Shown here: piece after piece, positions 3,631 to 39,412 of the stretch | Position numbering within the stretch: position 1 is the first letter of the stretch | How the letters are laid out: every line of letters begins with the position of its first letter | Assembly (NCBI GenBank): GCA_005881575.1 | Contig: VBCA01000005.1 | Location: forward strand, 12,322-76,321 | Length of the DNA: 64,000 bases | Direction of reading: 5' to 3' | Origin: Betaproteobacteria bacterium | Lineage (GTDB): Bacteria > Pseudomonadota > Gammaproteobacteria > Burkholderiales > SG8-39 | Translations under genes and position numbers: made by a program | Notes under the pieces: model-generated | What the model saw: only the letters and a program-made list of their open reading frames with translations | Told to the model about the DNA's origin: nothing | Database searches by the model: none

Positions 3631-3643
3631 GAAATATCTTGGG

Positions 3644-4468: not shown

Positions 4469-4472
4469 CGCG

Positions 4473-4676: not shown

Positions 4677-4717
4677 CTGGAATCCCCTGGGGCGAGAGGG
4701 TAAAATTATCTTACCAC

Positions 4718-4791
4718 GCGGGTGTAGTTCAATGGTAGAACGAAAGCTTCCCAAGCTTAAGACGAGGGTTCGATTCCCTTCACCCGCTCCA
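4718..4791 (+). tRNA. tRNA-Gly (anticodon CCC)
   Basis: It folds by hand into a cloverleaf. Acceptor GCGGGTG/CACCCGC, D arm GTTC..GAAC, anticodon loop TTCCCAA, T arm GAGGG-TTCGATT-CCCTT, encoded CCA. Confidence 0.9.
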
Positions 4792-4797
4792 AATCAA

Positions 4798-5703: not shown

Positions 5704-5719
5704 AAAACGCAAGGCCGGC

Positions 5720-9082: not shown

Positions 9083-9094
9083 GAGCAGGTCCGG

Positions 9095-12443: not shown

Positions 12444-13886
12444 TCAAAGAGACTTTCTCATGCTCACGGAAGGTATCTGCAGCGACTCGCGGTACTTCGC
12501 GATGGTGCGACGCGCGACCACGATGCCCTGCTGGCTGAGGATCTCGGCGATCTTGCTGTCCGAAAGGGGTTTCCGGGCATCCTCGGCGGCAACCAGCTGC
12601 TTGAGCAACGCCCGGATAGCGGTCGCCGAGCACGCACCCCCCGTCTCGGTGGCGACGTGACTCCCGAAGAAGTACTTGAGCTCGAAAATGCCGCGCGGCG
12701 TGAACATGAACTTCTGAGTCGTGACGCGCGAGACGGTCGATTCGTGCAGGCCGAGCGTGTTTGCGATTTCGCGCAGCACCAGCGGCCGCATCCCGACCTC
12801 GCCGTGCTCGAAAAAATGGCGCTGCCGGTCGACGATCGCCTGCGACACGCGCAGGATCGTCTCGAACCGCTGCTGCACGTTCTTGATCAGCCAGCGTGCC
12901 TCCTGCAGCTGATGCGAGAGCTGGCCGCCCGACTGACTGCGGTTGTTCTGCAGGATATCGGCATACATGCGATTGATGCGCAGCTTCGGCAGCGCGTCGG
13001 GGTTGAGGCTCGCCACCCAGACGTTCTTGATTTTCTTCACTACGACGTCGGGCACGATGTAGCGCGTCTCGCTGGTCGAGAACGCGGCGCCGGGACGCGG
13101 GTTGAGGCTCTGGATCAGTCTCTGGGCCTGGCGCAGCTCGTCGTCTCCGCATTGCAGCGCCTTCCTGAGCTTCGAAAAGTCGCGCGCCGCAAGGAGCTGG
13201 AGGTGCTCGTGCGCGACGGCGAGAGCCGTGGCGCGGCTCGGCGTGGACTCGGGCAAGGCGAGCAGCTGCAGCTCGAGACATTCCGAGCAGTTGCGGGCAC
13301 CCACGCCCGTCGGGTCGAAGTTCTGCAGGTGCTTGAGGGCGATGGCCAGCTCTTCGGGCTCGATCTGCAACTCCTCGGGCACGAGCTGAGCGAGCTCCTC
13401 GATGGGCTGCGTGAGATAACCGCCTTCGTCGAGCGCTTCTATCAGGAACGCGACCAGGTTGCGGTCGCGCGGTTCGAGCTGGGTCAGGGAGAGTTGCCGG
13501 TGCAGATGCTCTCGCAGATTGGGAGACTCGGCGGGGACCTGGAAAAAATCGCCGTCATCGGCGTCGTCGCGCGTCCCCGAGCTCGAGCCGCCTTCACCCC
13601 CCCAGTCGGCGTCAGCCGAGAAAATGTCCGTCTGCGGCGGATTCTCGACGCTCGCCTCCTCGGCGGGCGCCTGAAGGGCGGTCGCCGGCTCGCCGTTCAT
13701 GTGCGCGAGGGGTGCCGGAATCTCGCCGTCGGCGTCTTCTCGCTCGAGGAGCGGATTTTCCGCTAGAAATTTCTCGAGCTCCTGATTCAACTCCATCGTC
13801 GAGAGCTGCAGCAGGCGTATCGATTGCTGCAGCTGCGGCGTCAGCGTCAGGTGCTGCGAGAGCTTGAGTTGTAGGGTCTGCTTCAT
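12444..13886 (-). CDS. rpoN: RNA polymerase sigma-54 factor
   Basis: 480 aa. It has the N-terminal region I (MKQTLQLKLSQHLTLTPQLQQSIRLLQLS) and the RpoN box (ARRTIAKYRE). Confidence 0.97.
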   Translation of the reverse strand: MKQTLQLKLSQHLTLTPQLQQSIRLLQLSTMELNQELEKFLAENPLLEREDADGEIPAPLAHMNGEPATALQAPAEEASVENPPQTDIFSADADWGGEGGSSSGTRDDADDGDFFQVPAESPNLREHLHRQLSLTQLEPRDRNLVAFLIEALDEGGYLTQPIEELAQLVPEELQIEPEELAIALKHLQNFDPTGVGARNCSECLELQLLALPESTPSRATALAVAHEHLQLLAARDFSKLRKALQCGDDELRQAQRLIQSLNPRPGAAFSTSETRYIVPDVVVKKIKNVWVASLNPDALPKLRINRMYADILQNNRSQSGGQLSHQLQEARWLIKNVQQRFETILRVSQAIVDRQRHFFEHGEVGMRPLVLREIANTLGLHESTVSRVTTQKFMFTPRGIFELKYFFGSHVATETGGACSATAIRALLKQLVAAEDARKPLSDSKIAEILSQQGIVVARRTIAKYRESLQIPSVSMRKSL

Positions 13887-13971: not shown

Positions 13972-14694
13972 CTACAGCCTGAAATTCTCGCCGAGATAAA
14001 CGCGTCTAACGTTTTCATTATAAACGATCTCGTCGGGTTTGCCGAAAGCGAGCACCAGGCCGTCGTTGATGATGTAGGCGTGGTCGCAAATTCCCAGCGT
14101 TTCCCGCACGTTATGGTCCGTGATGAGAATGCCGATGCCGCGTTCCTTCAGAAAACGGATGATTTTCTGAATGTCGAGCACCGCGATCGGGTCGACGCCC
14201 GCGAAGGGTTCATCGAGCAGTATGAAGCTCGGACGCGTCGCGAGCGCCCGGGCGATCTCGACGCGGCGGCGCTCCCCCCCCGACAGGGACAGGGCGGTGG
14301 ATTGCCGCAGATGCGCGATGTTGAGATCGCGCAGCAGCCCGGAAAGGCGGGACTCGATCTCCTCCTCGGGAAGTTCCTGCAGCTCCAGCACCGCGCGGAT
14401 GTTCTCCTCGACGGTCAGCTTGCGGAACACGGACGCTTCCTGGGGCAGGTACGACAGTCCCATGCGGGCGCGGCGGTGCATCGCGAAATGGCTGATTTCC
14501 CTGCCGTCGAGATGGATCGCTCCGTCGTCCACCGCGATCAGCCCCACGATCATGTAAAAACAAGTCGTCTTCCCGGCGCCGTTCGGACCCAGCAGCCCCA
14601 CGACCTCGCCGCTCGTCACCTCGAGCGACACGTCCTTGACCACGGCGCGCGAACCGTAGTGCTTCTTGAGTCCGTGGACCTGCAGCTGGCTCAT
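13972..14694 (-). CDS. lptB: LPS export ABC transporter ATP-binding protein
   Basis: 240 aa with Walker [10 protein letters not shown], signature [15 protein letters not shown] and Walker [10 protein letters not shown]. It lies next to lptA/lptC. Confidence 0.95.
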
Positions 14695-14725
14695 CGATTT
14701 CGCCCCGTTCGCAGGTACGGGGAGA

Positions 14726-15310
14726 CTACTCCTTCCGGCCCGTGCCGGAACCCGGCCGGGTTTCGGGCTCCGCGGGCTTTTTCGGCATGATGGTTGCGCG
14801 CACGCGTCCTTCGCGTTCGGTCCCGGGCGCCTCGTCGGTCGATTTCACGGTAAAACGCTCGGTGCGGGCGTCGTAGGAGATGAAATCGCCGCGAATATCG
14901 TCCCCGCTGTCGCGGCGCAGCCGGGCGGCGGTGAAGAACTCGACGCGCTCGAGCTTGTTGTCGTATTCGATCCTGAACGCTTCTCCGTCGATGTATTCTC
15001 CGTCACCATCCCGCTTGTGACGGAACGTCGCCGGCTTGCCGCTCGCAACGCCGTAGTAGAAGCCGTCGCCGTCCTGCCGCACGACGATTCGGTCCGCGCG
15101 GATGATGAGCGAGCCTTGGGCCAGCACGACTTTTCCCTCGAAAGTGGAAACTTTCTTGGCTTCGTCGGAAATCATGCTGTCGGATTCGATGTTGATCGGT
15201 TTGTCGCGATCGGCTCTCTCGGCAAGCACCGATTCCGACGTCAATGCCCACATCGCCGCAAGACCGAGGGCCGCGGCTGCGCGCGCCCTATTTCCTGGAT
15301 GGGACATCAA
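14726..15310 (-). CDS. lptA: LPS transport periplasmic protein LptA
   Basis: It has a signal peptide and an OstA-like beta-jellyroll sequence ([10 protein letters not shown]......F.G.V...QG.L.I.AD.I.V). Confidence 0.85.
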
Positions 15311-15866
15311 GGATGCCCTTGACTTGCGATTGCAGCGTGAACTGTTGATTGTTCTTGTTCACAATCATCCCGACCCCTGTCAAGATGGAGCGCCCCTCCG
15401 AAATGGTGACCGTGTGATCCGTACGCGCGATTCCCTGCTCGGCGAGTAGGTGGAGGAATTCCGTTCGAGCGCGAAACTCGGGTCGCTCCGGCGTTGCCTC
15501 GCGCAAGATGAGCACATTGCCGTACAGGAAAGCCTCCTCGCCTTGGCGATTGATGGTGCCGCGATTTGCGGTCGCGATGAAATTACCGTTGTCGGCGGCA
15601 ATTTCAACGAAGCGCGGATAAAGCGCCTCGCCCGAACCATCGTCGGCAAAATGCATCATCTTCGGCGCAGAGAATGTGTACCGGAGCTTGCCCGAAGCGT
15701 CCAGCCTTTGAACCGTGAAATTCTCGACGATGGAATCGGGATCGTGCCCGGTAGACTTCGAATCGCCGCCGAAACCCTCCACCACGGCGTATTGCAGCCA
15801 CAGGGTCAGCAACCCGAGAAACGCCATCAGAACGAGCGGGAGCAGAGGCGTAACGCGTGGTTTCAT
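15288..15866 (-). CDS. lptC: LPS export system protein LptC
   Basis: It has an N-terminal anchor (MKPRVTPLLPLVLMAFLGLLTLWL) and lies between kdsC and lptA. The ATG at 15866 overlaps the kdsC stop, and the upstream ORF extension lies inside kdsC. Confidence 0.8.
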   Translation of the reverse strand: MKPRVTPLLPLVLMAFLGLLTLWLQYAVVEGFGGDSKSTGHDPDSIVENFTVQRLDASGKLRYTFSAPKMMHFADDGSGEALYPRFVEIAADNGNFIATANRGTINRQGEEAFLYGNVLILREATPERPEFRARTEFLHLLAEQGIARTDHTVTISEGRSILTGVGMIVNKNNQQFTLQSQVKGILDVPSRK

Positions 15867-16393
15867 GCGAGCTGGCGCGCGATCAGCCGCTCTAGCGTGT
15901 CTTGGGCCCGCATGATCAGCTCGCAGACCTCGCGGACGGCGCCCCTGCCGCCGGGAGCCCGCGTAACGTGGTGGACGCGCTCTCTCACGAGCTCCGGTGC
16001 TTCCGGCACGCTCGCGGCGAACCCGCAACGCGCGAGCACCGGCAGATCCACCCAATCGTCGCCCATGTATCCGGCGACTGCGGCGGAGGTGCGCAAGCGG
16101 CCGATCAGGCTCTCGAAAGCAGCACTCTTGTTCCCCGCACCTTGTTCCACGTGCGTGATGCCAAGCTCAGCGGCGCGCACCTCGACGGCGCGCGAGCGAC
16201 GCGCGGAAAGAATGGCGACCTCGACCCCGCTCTCCTTCAGCATCTTGAGCCCATGGCCGTCCTGAGCGTTGAATGCCTTCAACTCGGCTCCAGTCTCGCT
16301 GAAGTACAGGGTCCCGTCGGTGAGCACCCCGTCGACATCGAAGATCATCAGGCGCAGACGCCGCATTCGCTCTAGAGCGTCGTCGCGCATCAA
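15863..16393 (-). CDS. kdsC: 3-deoxy-D-manno-octulosonate 8-phosphate phosphatase
   Basis: 176 aa with the HAD motif IFDVDGVLTDG. It follows kdsD with a 4-nt overlap. Confidence 0.9.
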   Translation of the reverse strand: MMRDDALERMRRLRLMIFDVDGVLTDGTLYFSETGAELKAFNAQDGHGLKMLKESGVEVAILSARRSRAVEVRAAELGITHVEQGAGNKSAAFESLIGRLRTSAAVAGYMGDDWVDLPVLARCGFAASVPEAPELVRERVHHVTRAPGGRGAVREVCELIMRAQDTLERLIARQLA

Positions 16394-17382
16394 ATGACCT
16401 TGGCGCGAAACAGATCGTGCATGTTGAGAGCGCCGACCAGCTCTCCCGTTTCCGTAGCGACGAGCAGCTGATTGATCTTGTGACGCTCCATCAACTCGAG
16501 GGCTTCGGCGGCCAGCTTGTGCGGGGCGATCGTGTGCGGGCTGCGCTTCATGACATCGGCAATCTTGAGCGCGCGGACGTCGGGTTTGCGCTCCAGCGTC
16601 CTGCGCAGGTCGCCGTCGGTGAATATTCCGACGAGCTTTTTGCCGGGCCCGAGGATGGCGGTCATGCCCATGCTCTTCCTGGATATCTCTGCCAGCAAGT
16701 CGGAAAAGGAATCGGTGTCGGATACGGCCGGAACGTCGTTGCCGGTACGCATCACGTCGGAGACATGGATGAGCAGCTTCCTGCCGAGAGCGCCGCCGGG
16801 ATGGGCGCGAGCGAAATCCTGCTCATCGAAACCGCGAGCGTCGAGCAAAGCGACCGCCAGAGCGTCGCCGAGCGCGAGCGCGGCGGTGGTGCTCGCCGTC
16901 GGCGCAAGATTCAGCGGGCAGGCTTCCTGCGCGACGCCCGCGTCAAGGTGGACATCGGCTTCCCGGGCAAGCGCCGAGTCGGGATTGCCGGTCAGCGCGA
17001 TCAGCTTCGCGCCCTGGCGTTTTATCCGGGGGATGATCGTGAGCAGCTCATCCGACTGGCCGGAATTCGAGAGCGCCAGAACGACGTCATCGCGCGTGAT
17101 CATGCCCAGATCGCCGTGTCCCGCCTCGGCGGCGTGGACGAAAAAAGCCGGCGTCCCCGTGCTCGCCAGCGTGGATGCGATCTTGCGGGCGATGTGCCCC
17201 GACTTGCCGACGCCGCTCACGACGACGCGCCCGCGGCACGCGAGGATCAGACCGACCGCATCCAGGAAACGCTCGTCGAGTCGCGATATCAGCCCGCTCA
17301 CCGCATCGGCCTCGATAGCGAGCACTTTGCGCGCGAGCTCAAGCGCGGAGCTTGAAATCGCTTTCTTCGATCGATCGTTCAT
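16390..17382 (-). CDS. kdsD: Arabinose-5-phosphate isomerase (KdsD/KpsF family)
   Basis: 330 aa. It has a SIS domain (VVVSGVGKSGHIARKIASTLASTGTPAFFVH) followed by tandem CBS domains. Confidence 0.9.
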   Translation of the reverse strand: MNDRSKKAISSSALELARKVLAIEADAVSGLISRLDERFLDAVGLILACRGRVVVSGVGKSGHIARKIASTLASTGTPAFFVHAAEAGHGDLGMITRDDVVLALSNSGQSDELLTIIPRIKRQGAKLIALTGNPDSALAREADVHLDAGVAQEACPLNLAPTASTTAALALGDALAVALLDARGFDEQDFARAHPGGALGRKLLIHVSDVMRTGNDVPAVSDTDSFSDLLAEISRKSMGMTAILGPGKKLVGIFTDGDLRRTLERKPDVRALKIADVMKRSPHTIAPHKLAAEALELMERHKINQLLVATETGELVGALNMHDLFRAKVI

Positions 17383-19515: not shown

Positions 19516-21282
19516 TTACTTTCCCGATGCGGAAACGGCCCTCGCCATGACGAGCAAGGGTTCGACCGCGCTTCGATCCGCGGTGCGCGCTTGCTCGAGG
19601 ATCAGGATCGTCGCATTGACTCGGTGCGGAAACGTTTCCAGGGCTCGCGCGAGCAGACTGCGCGCTTTTTCCGCCTCCCCGCTGAGGGCTAGGAAGACCG
19701 CGCGTCGTGCCACCACCGTATTGGCGGGCCAGTAGCGGGCTACGCGCTCGCTCAGGGCCAGCTTCTCGGCAAGCTCGCTCCGGTCCAGCGGAGCGCCGAT
19801 CAATATCCATAGCTCCGCCAGGGGCGCCATGAGCCCGTGGGTCAGCTCGCGCATGGTTGCGGCGTCCTGTTGTGCTTGGGTGGCAGAGGTGAGCGTAACG
19901 GTTGTTCCGGTGATGCGGGTGACGTCGAGTCGCATGTAATCCCTGAGCATGATCGCCGAGGCGACGGAAAGCACGATGCAGACGGCACCCGCGCTAATCG
20001 CGCTCGCGCGCGCGACCGCCAGCGAGGGCCCCGCTCGCGCGCTTGCTCCTATCAAAAGCGCGGTGACGCCGAGGAAGTGTGCACTCCAGAACGGAAACTC
20101 GGTCAGCGAGTGGATCATTTCGATTCCAACCGCGGCAATGATCCACCACGAAGCGACCTCCCGCCCCGTCCAGTAACGCCGCGCGGCCTGCCACCCCCAG
20201 ACGCACAGACCGCCCAGTACCAGGAGCGTGCCCACCAGGCCGGTTTCGGCAAGGAGGTGCAGGGGAACATTGTGCGGCGAAGTCCAGACTTCACCGATTG
20301 TCGTGAGCGACGGATCAAGCCCGATCTCGAACGCGGCACCGGCGAACTCGCCGGTGCCGACGCCGCCGAAAGGGGCACTGAGAAATACGCGTAGCGCGAT
20401 CAGCCATACCTGCCATCGCGGCTCGCCGTGTTCGAGGCGATCGATTGCCCCTTCACCCGAGGGGCCGAGATGGAGTGCCGCGTTGAGCCACGGCACTGCA
20501 AAATGGGCTGCTAAGACTGCGCCCGCGATTCCGCAGGCAGCAATTTTCGGGCGCCACTTTTGGGCGCCTTCTTGAGTGCGCGCCGCTAGAAACCCGAGCG
20601 CCGCATACCATAGCGCGTAGAGCAGGGTGCCGCGCGAGCCGGACAGCGCGCCGCCCAGAACGAGCAGGGCCAGGGCCGGAAGTGCATACGCCGTCCGCAC
20701 TCGCTCGCGCAGCCACAGGAACAGGAGCGCGCCTTCCCCGAGCGCCAGGTAGTTGGCATAAAGATTCGCTTGGGCGATGTTTCCGTAGGCGCGGTTGCCG
20801 TGCAGCTCGGCGACGACATCCTCGAACAGCTTGGGTCGGCCATAGAACTGCATGACCCCCGCCAGCGAATTCGCAAGAGCGCCGGCCAGAAGAAACATGG
20901 CCAGTACCGTCGCCACGCGCGCGATACCGAGCTCAGCCGTGAGTTGTGCCCCGAGCCAAATCATCAGCGCGGCGTAGAGGACGTACAGCGCAGCGACCAC
21001 GGGCAATTGGGAATAGACGTGCCCGCCGCTCGCCGCCTGGGCGGCGAGAAACGCCGCGAAGACGATCAGCCATAGCGCCGGCACGGGCGAGGACACGAAG
21101 GATACGGCCGTGACACCTCGCCCGACGAGCAGGGTCAGCGCGGCTGCAATGCCCAGCGCTGCGGCCAGCCATCCGGGGAAAAAACTCAGGATGGGCTGCT
21201 GGTGATACGCCAGCAGGAACGGCAGCAGACACAGGCTGCCCGCGAGCAACAGGCTTATTGTTTGGCCCGAGCTTGTCTTCAC
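19516..21282 (-). CDS. PglL/TfpO-type O-antigen-ligase-family protein (predicted pilin O-oligosaccharyltransferase)
   Basis: 588 aa, polytopic. The N-terminus (LLPFLLAYHQQPILSFFPGWLA) resembles the PglL_A signature, the middle is Wzy_C-like, and the helical C-terminal domain resembles Wzy_C_2. It lies directly downstream of two pilin genes. GTG start. Confidence 0.7.
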   Translation of the reverse strand: MKTSSGQTISLLLAGSLCLLPFLLAYHQQPILSFFPGWLAAALGIAAALTLLVGRGVTAVSFVSSPVPALWLIVFAAFLAAQAASGGHVYSQLPVVAALYVLYAALMIWLGAQLTAELGIARVATVLAMFLLAGALANSLAGVMQFYGRPKLFEDVVAELHGNRAYGNIAQANLYANYLALGEGALLFLWLRERVRTAYALPALALLVLGGALSGSRGTLLYALWYAALGFLAARTQEGAQKWRPKIAACGIAGAVLAAHFAVPWLNAALHLGPSGEGAIDRLEHGEPRWQVWLIALRVFLSAPFGGVGTGEFAGAAFEIGLDPSLTTIGEVWTSPHNVPLHLLAETGLVGTLLVLGGLCVWGWQAARRYWTGREVASWWIIAAVGIEMIHSLTEFPFWSAHFLGVTALLIGASARAGPSLAVARASAISAGAVCIVLSVASAIMLRDYMRLDVTRITGTTVTLTSATQAQQDAATMRELTHGLMAPLAELWILIGAPLDRSELAEKLALSERVARYWPANTVVARRAVFLALSGEAEKARSLLARALETFPHRVNATILILEQARTADRSAVEPLLVMARAVSASGK

Positions 21283-21301
21283 TCAGAGTCGGCCGGAAAC
21301 G

Positions 21302-21327
21302 AAAAGGCCCGCGCGAGCGGGCCTTTT
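21302..21327 (-). terminator. Rho-independent terminator/attenuator after the pilin genes
   Basis: The sequence is AAAA-GGCCCGC-gcga-GCGGGCC-TTTT, a perfect 7-bp GC stem flanked by A and T tracts. It sits 20 nt after the pilin-1 stop and before the ligase gene. Confidence 0.75.
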
Positions 21328-21346
21328 GCGGTGACGGGAGGCGTGG

Positions 21347-22018
21347 TTAAAAAGCCTTGCAGACCAGGTACTGACTCACCCCGGTTTCCACATAGCCCGT
21401 GGCCGGGGTTGCGGCCAGGTCAGGATTCGCGGTGGTCTGCAGTTGCGCGCGCACCTGGCCGGTCGCCGAGTTGCTGTCGTCGATCTGCGAGTCTATCGCA
21501 ATCGCGACCTTGTCCGGTATATTCGAGCTGCATAGCGTCAGACCGGTGAAGCCCAGACCGACTGTCGGGACCACTGCGTTCTCCACGCCGACGATGCCTC
21601 CGGCCGCGTTCGGCGGATTCGTCGCGGCGCCGCTTCCCGTGGTCAAGCCCGCGACGAATCCGGCGATGCGCAAGTGTTGCCAGAACAAGTGGGATTCCTT
21701 CGTAAGGTCGACGTCATTGTACTTGCCTGCGATGACCCCGTTGCCGTCACCGCTTGCGGGAGCCTGGACGGTCCAGCGCGCGGTGGCATTCGGGTCGTCT
21801 CCGGGGAGGGCGCGGTAACGGTCCTGGTAGGAGGTCACGGCCACGGCGACCCCGTTGAAATCGTTGATCGCGTTTTTGATCTTGGCCTGGGTGATCATTT
21901 CCTGGCCCTTCAGGATGCCGCCCAGGAGCAGTCCGATGATGACGAGCACGATCGCGATTTCGACCAAGGTGAAACCGGCCTCGGTCGAATTTCTGTTGCT
22001 GAAAGCAGATGCGGTCAT
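21347..22018 (-). CDS. Type IV pilin-like protein, paralogue 1 (prepilin-type N-terminal cleavage/methylation domain)
   Basis: The sequence MTASAFSNRNSTEAG|FTLVEIAIVLVIIGLLLGG has G-1, F+1 and E+5. Two Cys residues (LCSSN..., YLVCKAF) could form a C-terminal disulfide loop. GGAGG lies 6 nt upstream of the ATG at 22018. Confidence 0.85.
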   Translation of the reverse strand: MTASAFSNRNSTEAGFTLVEIAIVLVIIGLLLGGILKGQEMITQAKIKNAINDFNGVAVAVTSYQDRYRALPGDDPNATARWTVQAPASGDGNGVIAGKYNDVDLTKESHLFWQHLRIAGFVAGLTTGSGAATNPPNAAGGIVGVENAVVPTVGLGFTGLTLCSSNIPDKVAIAIDSQIDDSNSATGQVRAQLQTTANPDLAATPATGYVETGVSQYLVCKAF

Positions 22019-22085: not shown

Positions 22086-22781
22086 CTATAAGTTCTTGCA
22101 CAGCAGATACTGATTCACCCCGGTTTCCACGTAGGCCGTCGCCGCGCCTCCGGCGTCGCTAGCCGTAGGCGGATTCGCGGTGCCCTGGAGCTGCCCGCGG
22201 ATCTGGCCGGTCGCCGGGTTGCTGTCGTCCATCTGGCCGTCGACCGCGCTCGCCACCTTCTCCGGCAGGTTCGCGAAGCACACGATCAGGCTGGTGAAAC
22301 CCAGGCCGTTTGTGCCGGGCGCGCCCGACTCCACGCCGATCATGCCCCCGGCTGCATTCGTCGGCTGCGTCCCGCTTCCGGCTCCCGTGGTCAGGCCCGG
22401 GACGAATCCGGCGATGCGCAGATGCTGCCAGAACAGGTTGGATTCCGCTGCTGAGGTCGGGGCGCCCGCCCCTGGAAGGGCGTTGTAAAGGCCCGCGATG
22501 ATCCCGTTGCCGTTACCGCTTGCGGGATTCTGGACGGTCCAGCGTGTGGTGGCGTTCAAGTCGTCTCCCGGAATGGCGCGGTAGCGGTCCTGATAGGACG
22601 TCACGGCCACGGTGATGCCGTTGAAGTCGTTGACGATGTTCTTGATCTTGGCCTGGGTGATCATTTCCTGGCCCTTGAGCACGCCGCCCAAGAGCAGCCC
22701 GATGATCACGAGCACGATTGCGATCTCGACCAAAGTAAAACCCGCCTCGGTCGAATTCTTGCTGAAATTGGACAAACTCAT
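22086..22781 (-). CDS. Type IV pilin-like protein, paralogue 2
   Basis: It reads MSLSNFSKNSTEAG|FTLVEIAIVLVIIGLLLGG and is roughly 70% identical by eye to paralogue 1. The ATG at 22781 lies about 33 nt downstream of the predicted sigma-54 transcription start. Confidence 0.85.
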   Translation of the reverse strand: MSLSNFSKNSTEAGFTLVEIAIVLVIIGLLLGGVLKGQEMITQAKIKNIVNDFNGITVAVTSYQDRYRAIPGDDLNATTRWTVQNPASGNGNGIIAGLYNALPGAGAPTSAAESNLFWQHLRIAGFVPGLTTGAGSGTQPTNAAGGMIGVESGAPGTNGLGFTSLIVCFANLPEKVASAVDGQMDDSNPATGQIRGQLQGTANPPTASDAGGAATAYVETGVNQYLLCKNL

Positions 22782-22825: not shown

Positions 22826-22840
22826 GCAAAATATGTGCCC
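22826..22840 (-). promoter_or_regulatory. Sigma-54 (-24/-12) promoter of the pilin genes
   Basis: The minus strand reads GGGCAC-atatt-TTGCG, compared with the consensus TGGCAC-N5-TTGCW. The GG/GC spacing is exact, and it lies 45-60 nt upstream of the pilin-2 ATG. Confidence 0.75.
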
Positions 22841-22934: not shown

Positions 22935-23657
22935 TTAGTTCTTCCCCGGGGTCTTTCCGATCCGCGCTTCCAGTTGTTTCAGGCGCTCATCCAGGAATCT
23001 CAGCTCGGCCGGGTCCTTCACTCTCCCGCTTTGGAGATACCCCCCGATGATGAGACGGGCGGTTTCCAGCTCGTTCATGTCTTCCAGGATGAAGATCTCC
23101 ATCTGCTTCGCCCAGAGGGGAACGTCGTCGGCGACGGCGTAGCGCTGGATCGCTCGAGCGTAGCGGAGTGCGAGCGGCAGATCATGGAGCCGGTGCTTGG
23201 CGATGGCGGTGGCATGGGCAAGCCAGGGCCAGCGACGATTGGGATCGAGCAGGAACTGCCGATAAACGAACTCGAGCATGCTGCGCTGCTTGGCCTCGAC
23301 GGGCACTTCGGCATACAGCCTGCTCGCGGCGAGGAGGGGGTATTGGCCTCGCGGGTCCAGATCCAGTATTCTCGCGAGCCAAGCTTCCAGCCGGCCATAA
23401 TCGAGATCGCGATAGGGGACCTTGCTGCCGGATTGATAGTCGAACGCCTGTAAGTACAGCATCAGTGCCTTGCCGAGCGCCACGGGATCCCCGAAGCTCG
23501 CGAGCCTGAGCGCGGCGATGCTCGGCGCGGGCGCCAAATCCTCTGCCGCCGCCCGGGGCGGCGGGGCGGTGGCCTTCAGCCCGATCTGCGCGGCGAGCCC
23601 CAGAGCGAACAGCACGAGAACGCCACGCGGCACTACTGCAATCGATCGCTGTGACAT
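22935..23657 (-). CDS. Hypothetical exported/membrane-anchored helical protein (no family recognised)
   Basis: 240 aa with an N-terminal hydrophobic segment (VLVLFALGLAAQIGL) followed by a helical-repeat-like sequence. It starts 3 nt after the permease gene, so it is probably co-transcribed. Confidence 0.6.
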   Translation of the reverse strand: MSQRSIAVVPRGVLVLFALGLAAQIGLKATAPPPRAAAEDLAPAPSIAALRLASFGDPVALGKALMLYLQAFDYQSGSKVPYRDLDYGRLEAWLARILDLDPRGQYPLLAASRLYAEVPVEAKQRSMLEFVYRQFLLDPNRRWPWLAHATAIAKHRLHDLPLALRYARAIQRYAVADDVPLWAKQMEIFILEDMNELETARLIIGGYLQSGRVKDPAELRFLDERLKQLEARIGKTPGKN

Positions 23658-23660
23658 CGT

Positions 23661-24425
23661 CTAAAAGTTCTTTCGGTACAAATCGAAAAGCGCCGCGGAA
23701 CAGATCAGCACGAGGTAGAGCGCGGTCTGGCCGACGACGGGGCCGAGAGTGCTGACGCTCGGCGCCGATCCCAGCAGCCAAGTGGTCTGCGTCATCGCGT
23801 CGAGCGCCGGCAGCAGGAGCGCGATCAGGTTCACAACGGCATTCACCGCGCGATCGGTGAGGGTAGGATCCTGCAGCGGTGCGCCGGCGATGATCTGCAT
23901 TGCCGCCATTGAACGCGACAGCAGGTAGAAGCCTGCAACGGCGGCAAACGCCGGGACCACTTGCGCGAAAGACACCACGCAAAACAGACTCATAGCCGTC
24001 ACGATCAACAATTCGCAGATGAGGGAAAGAGTCCAGAGGGCGAGTCCCTGGGAATTTGCGAACGGCACCAAAGGCAGCGCGCTGAGCAGCGCAAGGATAG
24101 CGGCGAGCATGGCGTAACCGGCAAACTTTCCGAAAAAATAGGCGGAACGCGGCGCCGGCAGGGAGAGCAGCAGCTCGGTGACCTTGTCGCTCAATTCCCT
24201 CACCGTGCTCGTGATCACGAACACGGCCACGATGAAGACGGCGGCGACCCTGAGCGGGGCGGCGAGCAATGCGGTCTGGATCTCTCGAGATTCGGTGATC
24301 GCCACTTGATTCAGAAATTGGGCGAGGCCGAACGCGATTACCACGACCACTACCGCAAGCCACAAGAGGCGGTTTCGAACCGCCTCGAGCAAAGTAGCTC
24401 TAGCCAGCGAAGCGACGATGGGCAT
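23661..24425 (-). CDS. ABC-2 type transporter permease-like membrane protein
   Basis: 254 aa with about 6 hydrophobic spans. The opening ARATLLEAVRNRLLWLAVVVVVIAF is typical of ABC-2/NosY-like permeases. There is no adjacent ATPase gene. Confidence 0.6.
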   Translation of the reverse strand: MPIVASLARATLLEAVRNRLLWLAVVVVVIAFGLAQFLNQVAITESREIQTALLAAPLRVAAVFIVAVFVITSTVRELSDKVTELLLSLPAPRSAYFFGKFAGYAMLAAILALLSALPLVPFANSQGLALWTLSLICELLIVTAMSLFCVVSFAQVVPAFAAVAGFYLLSRSMAAMQIIAGAPLQDPTLTDRAVNAVVNLIALLLPALDAMTQTTWLLGSAPSVSTLGPVVGQTALYLVLICSAALFDLYRKNF

Positions 24426-24620: not shown

Positions 24621-26357
24621 ATGACCCAGGGTATGGCGACGACTGCCGCGCTTCAGATTTCTCAGCTTTTCATCGCGAGGTCATGGCGAGCTCTTTTTGT
24701 CGTCATGCTGGTGTCCCTGCATCTTGCCGCGATGTGGGGTACTGAGGATTACTGGGCGCGCGGCTTGATGCTCGCGCACTTCGGGCTTTTCATCCTCTGG
24801 CAGCCCTTCATGCGTAGCGAGCATCGCCTGACCTCGGCGCAGGTTGCGGCGATCGCTGCGATTGCGTTGGGGACCCTCTATTTCCTCAACTGGTGGCTGC
24901 TCGCCCTCTGGGTCAGCGTTCTGGCGGGAATCGTGGGCGGCAAGGTGTTCCTCTTCCAGGCACGGTGGCTGCGGCGCTTCTATCTCGTGGTGTTGCTGTA
25001 TCTCGTCTCGCTGCTGCTCATTTGGATCGTCCCGAACACCTTTCGTGTGCCCCTGCCCAATGAGGTCGAATTGCTGGCGCAATACGGCTTGCCCGTGCTG
25101 TTCCTCGTGATGGTTGCGATTCCCGCCGAGACGGACTCCGCGGAAACTCCCCAGGTCGTCGATTTTTTCTATGCCGCGATGATCGTGCTGCTGCTGATCG
25201 CCCTTGCGCTGGGCAGCTTTGCCTTCATGACGGTGGGCAAGATCGACTACATCATGGCTCTTTCGTTCAGCATGCTGATCATAGCGGGCGTGCTGCTGCT
25301 ACTCTCCTTCGCCTGGAACCCGCGCGCCGGATTCAGCGGGCTTTCCGTATATTTCTCGCGCTATCTGCTGTCGATAGGGCTGCCGTTCGAGCGCTGGCTG
25401 TATTTCTTGGCCGAGCTGTCGCAGCTCGAGACCAAGCCCGAGCGCTTCATGAAAGAGGCCTGCGTCGGCCTCGCGCGCCTACCCTGGGTGTCCGGCGGCT
25501 TCTGGCACACGGCGGGTGAGTCGGGCGATTTCGGCAAGGTCTCCAAGAACTCCGTCGAGTTCACCAACCAGGAAATCCACTTGCGGGTTTTCACCAAGCT
25601 GGCGTTGAGCCCTTCGCTGGTCTGGCACTTCCAGCTGCTCGGACAGCTTCTCGGCGAGTTCTATGTCGCCAAGCAGCGCGAGCAGAAACTCCAGCAGCAG
25701 ACCTACGTGCAAGCCGTTCACGAGACCGGGGCGCGCATGACGCACGACGTGAAGAACCTGCTGCAGTCTCTGAACGTTCTGTGCGCGGCCGCCGAGCGCG
25801 ATACCGCATCCGATGCAGACGGCGAACTGTCCTCGCTCATGCGCCGACAGCTCCCGGCGATTACGCTGCGCTTGCAGCAGACGCTCGACAAGCTGCAAAA
25901 GCCCGACGCGAGTAACGGTCGTTTCATCAAGGCCGATACGTGGTGGGAGGGCCTGCAGCGCAGCTATGCCGGTCGTGGCGTCGAGTTTTCCCGCGAGGGG
26001 CAGGGGGACTCCGTGATGCTGCCGAAGGAGCTCTTCGACAGCGCGGGCGACAATCTGCTGCAGAATGCGCTGCGAAAGCGCAGACTCGATGAATCCGTCG
26101 CCGTGCGCGCGACCTTCCGCTGCAACGACACCATCGAGTTTTCCGTGTGCGACAGCGGCGCTCCGGTGGCCGCGGAAGTGCTGCGTGGGCTGATGAGGGG
26201 GCCGGTGCCTTCGGAAACCGGATTCGGCATCGGCCTGTACCAGACCAGCCGGCTCGCCGAAATCTCGGGATTCTCGCTGCAACTGCGAGACAACGAGAGT
26301 GGCCGGGTGTGCTTCAGCCTGCGGGGAGAAGTGCGCCGCGGCGCACGCGGGCAGTGA
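24621..26357 (+). CDS. Multi-pass membrane sensor histidine kinase (PilS/PrsK-like)
   Basis: 578 aa. The first ~300 aa contain many TM helices. It has an H-box (ARMTHDVKNLLQSL) and an HATPase_c domain (DNLLQNALRK..., G.GIGLYQ). Confidence 0.85.
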   Translation: MTQGMATTAALQISQLFIARSWRALFVVMLVSLHLAAMWGTEDYWARGLMLAHFGLFILWQPFMRSEHRLTSAQVAAIAAIALGTLYFLNWWLLALWVSVLAGIVGGKVFLFQARWLRRFYLVVLLYLVSLLLIWIVPNTFRVPLPNEVELLAQYGLPVLFLVMVAIPAETDSAETPQVVDFFYAAMIVLLLIALALGSFAFMTVGKIDYIMALSFSMLIIAGVLLLLSFAWNPRAGFSGLSVYFSRYLLSIGLPFERWLYFLAELSQLETKPERFMKEACVGLARLPWVSGGFWHTAGESGDFGKVSKNSVEFTNQEIHLRVFTKLALSPSLVWHFQLLGQLLGEFYVAKQREQKLQQQTYVQAVHETGARMTHDVKNLLQSLNVLCAAAERDTASDADGELSSLMRRQLPAITLRLQQTLDKLQKPDASNGRFIKADTWWEGLQRSYAGRGVEFSREGQGDSVMLPKELFDSAGDNLLQNALRKRRLDESVAVRATFRCNDTIEFSVCDSGAPVAAEVLRGLMRGPVPSETGFGIGLYQTSRLAEISGFSLQLRDNESGRVCFSLRGEVRRGARGQ

Positions 26358-26391: not shown

Positions 26392-27360
26392 TCAGGGCAG
26401 GCGCCCGGCAGCGACCATGCGGCTGATGAGCGCGCTGGAGGAAATCATGACCACGATGTCGTCGAATTCACAGGGCGGAGCCACGCTCTGCGGCGCTGGT
26501 GGGGGGGAAGGATCGACGCAACCCGCTGCGGAAGGCGTACGCGTTCGGCTGTAGAAGGCCCAGCTCGAGTAGCCCCCTGAGGGGGTGGCGGTTGTGTTGC
26601 CGTTGACATTGGCGGCTTCGTCGTTGCCGGTCGGTATGGGGTTAAGCCGCGTGCCGTTCGTCTGCCAGGCGCCGAAGCCGTTCTTGCCGTGCGAAATGAA
26701 TATCGCGGGCAAGGCCGAGCCCAAAGGAACGGCTGTCGTGGTCGAATCGCCTCGGGTGAAGACCGCGATGTCACCCAGCGAACACAGAGCGAACGACGAG
26801 AGCGCGGGGGCGGGTGAAAGTACGAAAGGCGCTACAAGCGGCGGAGCGGACGGAGGGCAGGTCGGATTTTGATCCGCGGGACTTTGACGAAAGGGGGCGA
26901 CCTGTGAAGGAAAAGTACCAGGAACGGCGTTTTGGCGCGATTGCCACGTGTTTAGACTAATTGCGTCCGCGAACGCAGGCGCTACACGATAGCTGAGCCG
27001 TCTCCCCCAAGCGTCAGTCTCAGAGACTCCCAGAGTTGTCCATGGCACTACGCCGAACACAATGTAGCAACGGTTGTTGTTGGGGTCCCACTGCTCGGCG
27101 CCAGCGCCAACCGGCGTAGCCCAAGTCGTGGTGTCAACCGTCCCCGCGGGCGTCCCGCCATTCGCCGGACACGGAAGGCGCCCGTTTGCCTGGGCGAATC
27201 CGATAATCGCATCCCTGATCGAATCCATACTGCGCTTAGTATCGGCCGAATTGCGCACGTCGATCTGGGTGGAGAGCGGAATCAAAGCGCCAGCGAGCAG
27301 CAAGGCGATGATCGCCAACGCCACCGCAAGCTCGACGAGCGAGAAACCCTTACTGCTCAT
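26392..27360 (-). CDS. Large minor (pseudo)pilin with prepilin-type N-terminal cleavage/methylation domain
   Basis: 322 aa. The sequence MSSKG|FSLVELAVALAIIALLLAG has G-1, F+1 and E+5. It is the last gene of the assembly operon. Confidence 0.8.
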   Translation of the reverse strand: MSSKGFSLVELAVALAIIALLLAGALIPLSTQIDVRNSADTKRSMDSIRDAIIGFAQANGRLPCPANGGTPAGTVDTTTWATPVGAGAEQWDPNNNRCYIVFGVVPWTTLGVSETDAWGRRLSYRVAPAFADAISLNTWQSRQNAVPGTFPSQVAPFRQSPADQNPTCPPSAPPLVAPFVLSPAPALSSFALCSLGDIAVFTRGDSTTTAVPLGSALPAIFISHGKNGFGAWQTNGTRLNPIPTGNDEAANVNGNTTATPSGGYSSWAFYSRTRTPSAAGCVDPSPPPAPQSVAPPCEFDDIVVMISSSALISRMVAAGRLP

Positions 27361-27370
27361 CGCGCTGGAT

Positions 27371-29098
27371 TCAGGGCGAAACGACCACGACCCGGTCGTT
27401 GATCGCAGTGGGGACGCCCGATCGGTGTTCGAAGATCAGGTCTGCCGGCGTGGCATTCTGCCCTTCAAGATAGTTCGCGAGGGTCCCCGGGCGGGTCTGG
27501 CCGTCCAGCGCGCGGCCTGCAAAGATCAGGATCACCTGCTTGTTGTTGTTTGGGGCCGGGAGATTGTTTACCGTCAGGCAGGTGGTTCCCGCAGTGCAGG
27601 GGGGGCTGGGGCTGGCACCGGGTAGGTAATTCTGAGAGACCGCGTAGTAACTCTGGCGATACCACTGGTTCGAAGTGAACCAGGTGATATTTGGATTGGT
27701 AGGACTTGCGTTGGTAAGGCGCGGCAAATAGGACGGCGCGGGGAGAGGAACGGTGATCGTGACCCTGCCGATGGTGTCCCGTGCATTCTGCAGCCGCCCG
27801 GTGTAGGTGACCACACCTCTTCCGTCCGCCCGCGCCGCAAAGCTCAGTGTGGGCGGGTTGCGCGGACTAGTCGCGCTAAAGCCCTCACTCCATTGGCCGA
27901 ATGACGTGTTGACGAGCGGAGTGCCGTTCCGGTTGACCATCACTATAGTCGAATCGTTAGGGGCAACCATGGACGGGGTATCGGCAAACGCCAAGCTCGC
28001 GTTCGCCAGGAGAATCTCAAGCTTGATGTCAGGGCGAGCGTCGCTGTGGGCGATGTCGCCGCAGCAATAGTCAACCGTACAGGTCACGGTAAGCGGCGGC
28101 GGAGGCGAACTTATCGAGCAGATCGCAGGATTGGGGGAGATAGTATCTGGGGGAGACTTTATCGCCACATCGTAACTCCCCGTGCCCGACCCGACGATAT
28201 CCGTGACGGTAGCGCTCGCCCAAGTGAGCCACGCCGGATCGTTCGTCACGGGCAGCAAGCCCATCGTCTGATTTGACGCGCCCTGATAGGCGGACTGCGC
28301 GGTAGGCGGCGCGACAAACGGCATGGCAAATGGGTAGGCGCCCCATTTGCCGAAATAGTCCAGGAGGAGGGGTTTGACGTCGCGCTCGATCCGCGCGGCG
28401 ACGACCGGTTCGACCGCTGCCATCAGGTCGGCCTGTGTGATCACGACCAGGCGATCATTCGCCGTGTCAGAGGGCGTGGCAACGGTGCTGAACCCATAGT
28501 CGGGTGTACTCGGCGTGACTCCTTCTAGATAGGCAGCGGGATCGTTGTGCTGGGCTATCCGGTCTTGCCCCGAAAACGCCGCGCCGGGAGCAATAACGAC
28601 GGCGACCACATTGCTTGCAGGCGCTGCGCCAGTGACAGTGAGCAAGCCGGGAGTATCGCTATTGATGATGTTGGCCGCATTCTTGTAAAAGTTGGACGAA
28701 ACCGCGTACCATAAACGCTCTCCGCTTGCGTCTCTCAGATCTTCGCCGCCTATCGTCGCCCACGGCAAGCGACCGACGCGATCGGCGGCGGCAGAGCAGA
28801 TTCCCGGCGACGCACCGGTGTCGTTGTTGTCAGGGCAAGGCAGCCCACCGGGTTGGTTTGTCGTTTGCCCCTTGTACAACTGCCACTGCTCGTTGGCGGC
28901 GTACGCAATCAGCGCCGCCTTCGCTTTCCTCAGCGCGCTCATGCTGCGATCCTCGCGCTCGTTGGAGTTCCCGGCGCTGGTGAGGTTGAGGGCGCTGGCT
29001 ATAAGGAAGGCGCTGATCAAAGCGGCCAGGGCGAGGAGCGCGATCAACGCAAAGCCGCGCCGACCCGACGCCCTCTTACGCCATGCCCGGATCCTCAC
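27371..29098 (-). CDS. Large pilus-associated protein with an E5-less pseudopilin-like N-terminus (GspK/PilX-like; possible tip or adhesin subunit)
   Basis: 575 aa. The sequence RRG|FALIALLALAALISAFLIA has G/F but Ala at +5. It shares a Cys-containing module with the 322-aa pseudopilin. The GTG start overlaps the upstream stop (GTGA). Confidence 0.6.
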   Translation of the reverse strand: MRIRAWRKRASGRRGFALIALLALAALISAFLIASALNLTSAGNSNEREDRSMSALRKAKAALIAYAANEQWQLYKGQTTNQPGGLPCPDNNDTGASPGICSAAADRVGRLPWATIGGEDLRDASGERLWYAVSSNFYKNAANIINSDTPGLLTVTGAAPASNVVAVVIAPGAAFSGQDRIAQHNDPAAYLEGVTPSTPDYGFSTVATPSDTANDRLVVITQADLMAAVEPVVAARIERDVKPLLLDYFGKWGAYPFAMPFVAPPTAQSAYQGASNQTMGLLPVTNDPAWLTWASATVTDIVGSGTGSYDVAIKSPPDTISPNPAICSISSPPPPLTVTCTVDYCCGDIAHSDARPDIKLEILLANASLAFADTPSMVAPNDSTIVMVNRNGTPLVNTSFGQWSEGFSATSPRNPPTLSFAARADGRGVVTYTGRLQNARDTIGRVTITVPLPAPSYLPRLTNASPTNPNITWFTSNQWYRQSYYAVSQNYLPGASPSPPCTAGTTCLTVNNLPAPNNNKQVILIFAGRALDGQTRPGTLANYLEGQNATPADLIFEHRSGVPTAINDRVVVVSP

Positions 29099-29544
29099 GG
29101 CTTGCGCTCGCGTTCCTCGGAAGGAGTCGTGATTCTGCCGCTTGCGGCGGGATCTCTGATCTCGCCGCGGACCTTGTCGAGCGTCTGCCCGATCTTGAGG
29201 GTGACCGACGGCGCGCCCTCGCCGCCGGGCAGGGTCACCCGGGCCGGATCGAGGGGTTTCCTCGCGCTCTCCTGTGGAACCCCGTTGATCCAGGTCGTGC
29301 TCCGGCCCGAGGAGCGCGACACTTGGCCGTTGACCGTGACGGTGCTCTCGACGACGACCGCGGTTTCCTGGATGTTGGCCTGGCGGCGGCGGTCGAGGTC
29401 CTGGCGCTCCTGCTCGGTGAAGAAGAGGCGCCCGAGATTCTGCTGGGCGGCGACCTGCCCCGTCGCGACTCCGAGCAGAAATGTCACCGCGAAAAGGCGT
29501 CTCGCGAGTTTCACGTGCCTTCCGATGGTTAGTTTGCGTTGCAT
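29095..29544 (-). CDS. Small secreted protein of the pilus operon (MshK/PilP position), function unassigned
   Basis: 149 aa from the ATG at 29544, with a signal peptide (LFAVTFLLGVATGQVAAQQ). It lies between the PilO-like and pseudopilin genes. Confidence 0.5.
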   Translation of the reverse strand: MQRKLTIGRHVKLARRLFAVTFLLGVATGQVAAQQNLGRLFFTEQERQDLDRRRQANIQETAVVVESTVTVNGQVSRSSGRSTTWINGVPQESARKPLDPARVTLPGGEGAPSVTLKIGQTLDKVRGEIRDPAASGRITTPSEERERKP

Positions 29545-29552
29545 GCGTCGGC

Positions 29553-30167
29553 TCAAGCGGGCTTGAGCCCTCTGACCGAGATCAGGTCGACCTGGCACTC
29601 GGCCCGAAGGCGTGGTCGCAGCGTCGTCGTGCCCGGTGCCGCCCCGCGCTCTATCCGCGTCACGGTGCAATTCCGCACGGACACGTGCGCCTTGATGCCT
29701 GCCTGCAGGTCTGCCAGGAAATTCAGGAGATCCCCCTCGTGCAGCAGCAGCATGTCGAGTTTCAGCCTGCTCACCACAAAGTCGGCGCCGCCGGTTGGTA
29801 CCAGCCCGGGATAGTCGAGCGGTCTTTGGGCTTCGAAGTTGTACCTGATCTCGAAGAGCTTGCGATCGTTTTTGATCCTGGCGATCGATTCGATCCAGTC
29901 GAGGCGGCTCTGCTCGCCCACGACACCGCGTTGGCGCATCTGCTCGTAGTACACGAGATCATCGCGGATCTCGCGCTCTTCCTCCGAGACTCTTAGGACC
30001 CGTTCCTGGGCCGCCACGCGGGTCAGTCTGGTTGCGTCCTGCGCCGTTCTCGCCTCGTCCAGGTAGTATCCGCTGGCGATCAGGCTGGCTGCACCCAGCA
30101 CGAGCAGTATGATCGCCATAGCGAGCGGCATGCGCAGGCGCTTGAGGTCGTCGCGGGTGACGTTCAT
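29553..30167 (-). CDS. PilO/MshJ-like bitopic pilus assembly protein
   Basis: 204 aa with a single N-terminal TM (PLAMAIILLVLGAASLIASGYYL), a coiled-coil-like stretch and a C-terminal globular part. Its ATG overlaps the stop of the upstream PilM/N-like gene (ATGA). The assignment rests on architecture and position. Confidence 0.5.
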   Translation of the reverse strand: MNVTRDDLKRLRMPLAMAIILLVLGAASLIASGYYLDEARTAQDATRLTRVAAQERVLRVSEEEREIRDDLVYYEQMRQRGVVGEQSRLDWIESIARIKNDRKLFEIRYNFEAQRPLDYPGLVPTGGADFVVSRLKLDMLLLHEGDLLNFLADLQAGIKAHVSVRNCTVTRIERGAAPGTTTLRPRLRAECQVDLISVRGLKPA

Positions 30168-31738: not shown

Positions 31739-31743
31739 GGCGT

Positions 31744-32949: not shown

Positions 32950-32982
32950 GTTCGATTGCGTCGGCCCTGCGCGGGCCCGCGC

Positions 32983-34710: not shown

Positions 34711-34718
34711 CGAGAGGG

Positions 34719-39384: not shown

Positions 39385-39412
39385 CGATCCCTCCCGGAGC
39401 GGGCCGCTGGCC

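Follow-up and report, generated by a model that had tools for sequence, protein, structure and literature searches.

Genetic organization of the pilin-ligase locus

The stretch of DNA analysed, hereafter the window, comprises 64,000 nucleotides (nt) of a Betaproteobacteria bacterium of the order Burkholderiales (assembly GCA_005881575.1, contig VBCA01000005.1, positions 12,322 to 76,321) and contains, on its minus strand, a gene encoding a large polytopic protein, here called the ligase, directly downstream of two type IV pilin genes (Table 1). The ligase gene converges with kefC, on the opposite strand. Pilin paralogue 2 is preceded by a sigma-54-type promoter element, and the intergenic gap of 64 nt between the stop of pilin 1 and the start of the ligase contains a terminator-like hairpin. 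The initial annotation, made from the letters of the window alone, had placed the ligase directly downstream of the pilins, with a perfect terminator-like hairpin between pilin 1 and the ligase. The sequence and place of this hairpin are exact, and the gene order is found in the window and in its tandem relatives, with pilin linkage kept from 31 to 78% ligase identity.

Table 1. Position of the features of the pilin-ligase locus and of neighbouring genes in the window.
Feature	Position	Strand	Description
PglL-family O-oligosaccharyltransferase gene (ligase)	19516..21282	minus	open reading frame, 588 amino acids, polytopic, GTG start
Predicted intrinsic terminator hairpin of the pilin operon	21302..21327	minus	symmetric, AAAA-GGCCCGC-TCGC-GCGGGCC-TTTT; AAAAGGCCCGC-TCGC-GCGGGCCTTTT
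Pilin paralogue 1	21347..22018	minus	precursor of 223 amino acids, leader MTASAFSNRNSTEAG, mature FTLVEIA..., 208 amino acids; ATG at 22018 likeliest start
Candidate acceptor loop, pilin 1	21395..21433	minus	mature residues 181-193, TANPDLAATPATG, just before conserved Tyr194; putative
Pilin paralogue 2	22086..22781	minus	precursor of 231 amino acids, leader MSLSNFSKNSTEAG, 217 amino acids mature; ATG at 22781 likeliest start; first operon gene
Candidate acceptor loop, pilin 2	22134..22181	minus	TANPPTASDAGGAATA, before Tyr; aligned with the pilin 1 loop; putative
Second Ala/Pro/Ser-rich segment, pilin 2	22440..22475	minus	PGAGAPTSAAES, variable loop after the N-terminal helix; putative site
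Sigma-54-type -24/-12 element	22826..22839	minus	GGCAC-N5-TTGC, GGCACatattTTGC; upstream of pilin 2
240-amino-acid protein	22935-23657	minus	no family match; upstream of the pilin promoter, conserved in all related loci
ABC-2-type permease	23661-24425	minus	also upstream of the pilin promoter, conserved in all related loci
Histidine kinase	24621-26357	plus	weak resemblance to PEP-CTERM PrsK
MSHA-type type IV pilus machinery	26392-42515	minus	Pfam/NCBIfam
Sigma-54-dependent response regulator	39413-40837	minus	pilus cluster
Open reading frame with C-terminal ABC ATPase domain	40830-42515	minus	far end of the pilus cluster
rpoN	12444-13886		domain search

The GTG start codon of the ligase is occupied by ATG at the equivalent position in four relatives (L009, L010, L018 and L028). 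The start position can be considered fixed, because the relatives show GTG or ATG there, followed by AAG or AAA. No obvious Shine-Dalgarno sequence is located upstream of this GTG. Base composition shows no anomaly across 15-28 kb and, therefore, gives no sign of recent horizontal acquisition.

Assignment of the ligase to the PglL family

Pfam analysis shows two domains above threshold in the ligase: Wzy_C (PF04932) at residues 203-356 (E 1.7e-11, 44.6 bits against a cut-off of 31.7) and, as a C-terminal extension, Wzy_C_2 at residues 380-554 (E 4.3e-19, above the gathering score). Thus, the Wzy_C-like core and the Wzy_C_2-like C-terminal domain proposed at first were confirmed. The PglL_A signature (PF15864), which had been proposed for the N-terminus, was relocated: the Pfam match, which is below threshold (17.9 bits against a cut-off of 25), is at residues 165-190, the expected place N-terminal to Wzy_C, and includes the key residues Q171 and N173. 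The N-terminal block itself, LPFLLAYHQQP..., is conserved in the family and pairs with residues 29-53 of Neisseria PglL. A precomputed PF15864 match is present in 3 of the 120 ligase homologues listed, and the NCBIfam search of the ligase gave zero matches. The family is large, with 1803 matches, 270 of them with E up to 1e-30, in a library of 1.84 billion representatives without names or genomic context. Close homologues come from records of the type "MAG: Betaproteobacteria/Burkholderiales" and are named "hypothetical protein", "O-antigen ligase" or "Wzy polymerase domain-containing protein" in public records. The AlphaFold2 model of the ligase, built from a 38-sequence alignment, has a mean predicted local distance difference test score (pLDDT) of 49 and was too poor for fold search; the alignments available to AlphaFold2 were shallow, all usable homologues being at least 69-72% identical.

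When the ligase was compared with all PDB chains using phmmer, a single match with E up to 1 was found, 9rmk_A (E 1.2e-25, query residues 19-453). The title of this record is "Oligosaccharyltransferase", and its sequence is one that we take to be Neisseria PglL. A profile of the ligase family (38 sequences) matched 9rmk with an E of 3.4e-33 (118 bits) and the O-antigen ligase WaaL, 7tpg, with an E of 3e-06 (29 bits), the latter match being limited to the Wzy_C core (ligase residues 200-377). In the PglL of Neisseria meningitidis (NmPglL), the catalytic residues R224, R298 and H349 are common to PglL and WaaL, as is one further residue, P313, and seven others (Q178, N180, G316, G318, H400, E404 and P406) are conserved in PglL and not in WaaL (PMC3643930). 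The HMMER alignment to 9rmk_A places R217, R289 and H337 of the ligase at the three catalytic positions, P304 at P313, and Q171, N173, G307, G309, H391, E395 and P397 at the seven PglL-specific ones. All 11 published catalytic or PglL-diagnostic residues are therefore present; among the 38 ligase homologues ten are invariant and Q171 is nearly invariant. The published size classes are 550-600 amino acids for PglL, 440-470 for TfpO, 420-440 for TfpM and 520-550 for PglS (PMC9829042, Table 2), and the ligase, with 588 amino acids, is within the PglL class and outside the other three. Judged by its domains, residues and profile, the protein is a PglL-family O-oligosaccharyltransferase and not a WaaL.

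The enzyme is like that of N. meningitidis (PglL, also PglO; PDB 9rmk) in its catalytic and PglL-specific residues and its size class over an alignment spanning residues 19-453, although the sequence similarity is modest. In Neisseria, PglL modifies the type IV pilin PilE at an internal Ser and has further protein substrates (PMC9829042, PMC3643930). However, its gene is not adjacent to pilE, the listed context being "hypothetical membrane protein" (PMC3643930), and the window pilins belong to a different, larger family (about 210 amino acids) in an MSHA-type cluster.

It is very improbable that the ligase is a WaaL-type enzyme acting on lipid A-core in connection with the nearby kdsD-kdsC-lptC-lptA-lptB genes. 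The Wzy_C domain is common to both types, some homologues carry the O-antigen ligase name mentioned above, and the genes at 13972-17382 encode SIS+CBS, HAD-hydrolase, LptA/LptD_N and ABC ATPase domains. The names kdsD, kdsC, lptA and lptB were inferred from these domains and from the gene order common with the related locus L001, in which an LptC domain was called. The Cupriavidus metallidurans WaaL (PDB 7tpg) shares the Wzy_C core and the catalytic Arg/His/Arg with the ligase, but it is shorter (413-residue chain) and lacks the PglL-specific residues (PMC3643930), all seven of which are present in the ligase together with the C-terminal Wzy_C_2. Furthermore, 7tpg was unmatched by phmmer at E up to 1, and the family profile matches it far more weakly than PglL and only in the Wzy_C core. 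The ligase is also outside any lipopolysaccharide core or O-antigen cluster, its neighbours being the pilins and kefC. The opposite-strand kefC stands between it and the kdsD-kdsC-lptCAB-rpoN block, which is a housekeeping cluster and shows the same neighbours in relatives without ligase; many relatives have no ligase at that position.

The initial annotation had described the ligase as of PglL/TfpO type. The PglL part of this description stands, whereas the TfpO part does not. A TfpO/PilO-type pilin-specific enzyme, which attaches a short glycan to the last residue of the pilin, would agree with the place of the ligase gene behind a pilin gene and a terminator, comparable to that of tfpO behind pilA in Pseudomonas aeruginosa group I; many pglL genes occupy such a place as well (PMC3643930). 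TfpO enzymes modify a C-terminal Ser/Thr of the pilin with short glycans (PMC9829042), but the C-termini of the window pilins are ...CKAF and ...CKNL. Of 150 members of the pilin family, 139 carry one of the twelve commonest endings, which are almost all of the K/x/aromatic-or-aliphatic form, typically with F, L or Y last; the exceptions are KNG (four members) and PFS (three members), the latter being the only listed ending with Ser. The TfpO type fails because the ligase has 588 amino acids and the pilin C-termini lack Ser/Thr, and we consider it very improbable.

Distribution and orientation of the ligase in related loci

Related loci were collected in two scans. A scan of one genome per species gave 35 loci (L005-L039) with ligases 31-78% identical to that of the window, all from uncultured Burkholderiales/Betaproteobacteria. 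A scan of metagenomes with a pilin alignment gave 80 loci (L040-L119), of which 53 have at least 500 nt after the last pilin. Among the genome loci, 17 show the gene order of the window: histidine kinase, ABC-2 permease, 240-amino-acid protein, one or two pilins, ligase and convergent kefC. Three are truncated and compatible with this order. In eight, the ligase is inverted and co-directional with kefC, with the pilin converging on it, and seven show neither pilin nor kefC within 6 kb of the ligase. Thus, the ligase is at the pilin/kefC junction in 25 of the 35 genome loci (17 tandem and eight inverted). The 53 metagenome pilin loci contain a tandem ligase in 21 cases, an inverted one in three and no adjacent ligase in 29; in 22 of these 29, the kefC stop is directly after the pilin. 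The ligase is, then, accessory: at a single fixed junction, it may be present, missing or flipped.

In a neighbour-joining tree of the ligases, the inverted loci are in at least three places. No convincing inverted repeats flanking the ligase were found. Loci L016, L019 and L023 show genes encoding ATP synthase gamma or epsilon domains just upstream of the ligase. In the same tree, these ATP-synthase-linked ligases (55-58% identity), probably also including those of L031, L034 and L039, form one clade nested among the pilin-linked ones.

No other gene of the locus diverges as fast as the ligase. Identity to the window is 73% for the ligase, 93% for kefC, 97% for the histidine kinase and 96% for kdsD in L001; 58, 82, 81 and 78%, respectively, in L009; and 40, 68, 68 and 71%, respectively, in L032. 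Roughly the first 55 residues of the mature pilins are almost invariant, even where the ligases are only 40% identical, and three short blocks are hypervariable. Locus L025 shows about 2.5 kb of unrelated, partly AT-rich DNA between kefC and the ligase (positions 3508-6001), and L026 about 2 kb of unrelated DNA between the ligase and the pilin (positions 7752-9829), with a segment in common with the L025 insertion. The pilin/kefC junction appears to be an insertion hotspot.

Adjacency of pglL and pilin genes has a precedent: of the 31 species listed by Schulz et al. (2013, PMC3643930), 21 have pglL immediately beside a type IV pilin gene or a pair of them. The pilin-adjacent pglL genes of Polaromonas, Rhodoferax, Acidovorax, Ralstonia and Burkholderia are like the window gene in arrangement and bacterial order, although the homologues in that survey were selected with PglL_A scores above 20 and the window protein reaches 17.9 bits (PMC3643930).

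A conserved hairpin after the last pilin

The hairpin folds with 11 pairs, followed by UUUUCGUUU, and its predicted free energy is -19.2 kcal/mol. No second perfect 7-bp GC-rich stem with TTTT after it occurs on either strand of the window; 0.02 such stems were expected from 100 mononucleotide shuffles. A looser scan with a terminator consensus did not list it and found three sites against 4.2 expected. The distance from the T-tract to the ligase GTG is 19 nt (21301-21283).

In the tandem loci compared, a hairpin is located after the last pilin in every case, with a perfect stem in 17 of 18 and one mismatch in L015, and never between two pilin copies; no terminator or stable structure was found between the two pilin genes of the window. 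It is also found after the last pilin where the ligase is inverted, and in 13 of 21 loci without ligase. The stem exists as GGCCCGC/GCGGGCC, as GCCCGC/GCGGGC with an extra A-T pair, and as GGGCCCGC/GCGGGCCC, with G-C and A-T pairs exchanged on both sides. These two-sided exchanges are compensatory and, therefore, consistent with a functional RNA structure. Because it is kept with a tandem, an inverted or an absent ligase, the hairpin is predicted to be the pilin operon's own terminator and is not ligase-specific. It was first thought to be an attenuator of the ligase; the structure is real, unique in the window and conserved, but its dedication to the ligase does not hold, since inverted and ligase-free loci have it. 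As its A and T tracts are symmetric, the hairpin is bidirectional in form and may terminate transcription from both directions. In relatives, it is also seen between convergent genes (pilin/kefC or pilin/ligase).

Promoter of the pilin operon and expression of the ligase

The sigma-54 promoter proposed for the pilins in the initial annotation was recovered as the -24/-12 element of Table 1. In the window and in 20 related loci, the strict motif GGCAC-N5-TTGC precedes the GFTLVE motif of the first pilin by 87-122 nt; a near-consensus version is present in four more loci, and none was found before the second pilin copy in the same loci. The presence of the motif before the first pilin only supports, therefore, one sigma-54 operon for both pilins. 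The window also contains rpoN and an enhancer-binding-type response regulator, in addition to the GG-N10-GC element. A search for sigma-70-like sites on the minus strand gave none between 19000 and 24800. Both pilins would be transcribed from the single sigma-54 promoter, with the operon ending at the strong intrinsic terminator, and the ligase, with its GTG start and no clear ribosome-binding site, would be expressed at a low level from read-through transcripts.

PilR is a sigma-54-dependent regulator. It controls pilA of P. aeruginosa (PMC11841053), and the pilins of the window are preceded by a sigma-54 promoter element. In the pilA-terminator-tfpO and pilA-terminator-tfpY cassettes of this species, as in the window, the accessory gene comes after the major pilin with a Rho-independent terminator between them; this terminator has been proposed to attenuate expression of the accessory gene, and the same arrangement is described for other genera (PMC11841053). 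By analogy with these cassettes, terminator-attenuated co-expression of the ligase is most likely in this genome. The P. aeruginosa TfpO differs in its size of 440-470 amino acids, its C-terminal Ser/Thr target and its short glycans (PMC9829042), the window enzyme being of PglL type and its pilins lacking a C-terminal Ser/Thr. Read-through cannot be the conserved mode of ligase expression, because the ligase is inverted in eight genome and three metagenome loci.

It is possible, if rather doubtful, that the hairpin stops essentially all pilin transcripts and that the ligase has its own unrecognised promoter inside or just after pilin 1, with no attenuation. The stability and symmetry of the hairpin and its presence after the last pilin with or without a downstream ligase agree with this, as does the position of the inverted ligases, which start from a few to about 110 nt after the same-strand kefC (with the exception of L025) and so must be expressed without the pilin promoter. 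Nevertheless, there are only 19 nt between the T-tract and the GTG, the region lacks a sigma-70-like site as described above, and the P. aeruginosa cassettes, which are alike in layout, co-express pilin and accessory gene in a ratio set by the terminator (PMC11841053).

The pilins as candidate acceptors

Both prepilins show a leader of 14-15 residues ending in G and followed by FTLVEIAIV, with the cleavage motif G/FTLVEIA, and the paralogues share 72% identity. Over the N-terminal helix, they match Neisseria PilE (E 0.0011). In pilin 1, the pair Cys148-Cys205 bounds the C-terminal loop, and the alignment of the family shows a Cys-Cys pair around the C-terminal 57 residues and two variable loops. 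The family is highly abundant in soil metagenomes, where 8000 of 8000 scored candidates passed an E of 0.001, and its sole public name is "prepilin-type N-terminal cleavage/methylation domain". The pilin of the metagenome locus L040 (WNER01000019.1) is identical to that of the window. The AlphaFold2 model of pilin 1 (30-sequence alignment) has a mean pLDDT of 56, too poor for fold search. One of two pilin copies shows an apparent frameshift in L005 (5234-5855), L013 (4391-5050) and L060 (5064-5600), and these frameshifted copies suggest that the paralogues decay or turn over.

The Ala/Pro/Ser/Thr-rich strings quoted from the pilins in the initial annotation are all present in the translations, and three segments can be proposed as acceptor regions (Table 1). 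PglL enzymes use flexible low-complexity loops as acceptors. They act on protein-internal sequons (PMC9829042, Table 2). The best candidate would be the loop that precedes the conserved Tyr in the C-terminal region bounded by the disulphide. In pilin 1, this loop is one of the two most variable 10-residue blocks, with a mean entropy of 1.54 and a fraction of Ala, Pro, Ser, Thr and Gly of 0.73, and it is within a low-confidence segment of the AlphaFold2 model (residues 180-214). The PGAGAPTSAAES region of pilin 2 is variable, with different lengths in the family alignment. In all 62 distinct ligase-linked pilins, a Ser/Thr is found no more than four residues from the Tyr; of the pilins that lack an adjacent ligase, 15 of 23 show one (Fisher p = 1e-05, uncorrected for phylogeny). 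This enrichment is suggestive of a tie between the pilin loop and the ligase, and the ligase-free loci may have a ligase elsewhere in the genome. Linkage, the pglL precedent and the character of this loop make the two adjacent MSHA-type pilins the most probable, perhaps not the only, substrates of the ligase.

A further segment of pilin 1, PGDDPNAT (mature residues 57-64, positions 21818-21841 of the window), where the N-terminal helix ends, aligns with PGDNSSAG of Neisseria PilE (...WPGDNSSAG), and its nearest hydroxyl is Thr64. The WPGDNSSAG region of PilE is the one that carries the glycosylated Ser63. As an acceptor site at the position of PilE Ser63, PGDDPNAT was rejected: Ser/Thr is not conserved there in the family.

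The pilus cluster and flanking genes

The MSHA-type machinery, upstream of the pilins, includes a secretin passing the MshL model, an ATPase with an MshE N-terminal c-di-GMP-binding domain, a GspF/PilC-type platform protein, a tetratricopeptide repeat protein, an ExeA/MshM-like AAA protein with a SPOR domain and a 322-amino-acid prepilin. Four conserved proteins of the machinery (27371-31738) gave zero Pfam or NCBIfam matches. The flanks of the window contain housekeeping genes: mla, murA-like, his, cytochrome bc1, hemN-like, AsmA, mutY-like and the kds/lpt/rpoN block. In Vibrio cholerae, a PglL homologue is also beside the msh (MSHA pilus) operon, and MSHA components have been speculated to be its targets (PMC6901666). 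However, the Vibrio pglL is upstream of the msh operon and not after the major pilin, and glycosylation of MSHA is undemonstrated there (PMC6901666).

Discussion

The family membership of the ligase, the gene order and the promoter and terminator elements with their conservation are established features of this locus. With moderate confidence, we interpret the ligase as a PglL-family enzyme whose likeliest acceptors are the adjacent pilins and whose expression is kept low by terminator read-through. As a polytopic inner-membrane enzyme, it would take a glycan already assembled on an undecaprenyl-diphosphate carrier and transfer it to Ser/Thr hydroxyls of proteins exposed to the periplasm. The pilins would be modified at an internal, flexible Ala/Pro/Ser/Thr-rich loop and not at the C-terminus, with the loop before the conserved Tyr as the inferred site. 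For PglL and TfpO enzymes, the donor is usually not encoded alongside, as they draw on O-antigen, capsule or pgl pathways. No glycan-assembly or donor genes were found within the 64-kb window, and we infer that the glycan donor is encoded outside it.

This absence is one of several observations that weigh against the interpretation. The candidate loop of pilin 1 has Thr and no Ser, and PglL in Burkholderia is reportedly Ser-preferring. The clade of ATP-synthase-linked ligases has no pilin nearby and is nested in the pilin-linked ones, and more than half of the related metagenome pilin loci (29 of 53) have no adjacent ligase. On the side of expression, the apparently strong terminator occurs with or without the ligase, the inverted loci show that coupling to the pilin promoter is not conserved, and a weak internal promoter may serve the ligase.

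The ATP-synthase-linked clade indicates that a neighbouring pilin is not needed and, therefore, that the ligase may be a general O-glycosylase. In this tentative alternative, which we hold to be possible though not the likelier explanation, a PglL-type enzyme would modify many periplasmic or membrane proteins, pilin adjacency would be common and non-essential, and the pilins might be substrates or not. The literature describes PglL enzymes as general oligosaccharyltransferases that act on many substrates (PMC9829042); the clade after the ATP synthase genes shows no pilin within 6 kb, the pilin loci lacking an adjacent ligase are numerous, and several lineages have the ligase and the pilins in opposite orientation. 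Nevertheless, the ligase is kept at the pilin junction in 25 of the 35 genome loci despite inversions, and a loop Ser/Thr beside the conserved Tyr is always present in ligase-linked pilins. A general glycosylase would, moreover, be compatible with pilin glycosylation, merely with a wider substrate range.

Both the adjacency of pglL to pilin genes and the presence of a terminator separating a pilin gene from its accessory gene have been described before. Distinct here are the pilin family (large, in an MSHA-type cluster and from an uncultured soil lineage), the PglL_A score below the cut-off, the labile position of the ligase at its junction and, possibly, the Thr-rich acceptor context. A more speculative proposal, which we regard as rather improbable, is that the pilin-ligase pair constitutes a rapidly co-diversifying surface-glycan cassette of an uncharacterised MSHA-type pilus very abundant in soil Burkholderiales, gained, lost and inverted between relatives, with a PglL variant that acts on Thr/Ser two to three residues before the conserved Tyr ([P/A]-A-[T/S]-x-Y) in the C-terminal pilin loop bounded by the disulphide. 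Its sequon and residue preference would then differ from those of the Ser-preferring PglL enzymes that have been studied. Pilus-specific phages or predators might drive the diversification of such a cassette.

Glycosylation of the adjacent pilins by the ligase would open no new kind of biology. It would give a specific, testable function in place of generic labels to a protein family that is widespread in soil metagenomes, and would connect this function with pilins of uncultured Burkholderiales that form a very abundant, unstudied family. The presence, absence and orientation of the ligase at one junction provide a comparative system in which to ask whether pilin sequence tracks glycosylation capacity, and the same natural variation may be used to ask whether terminator read-through is needed for the expression of the accessory gene.

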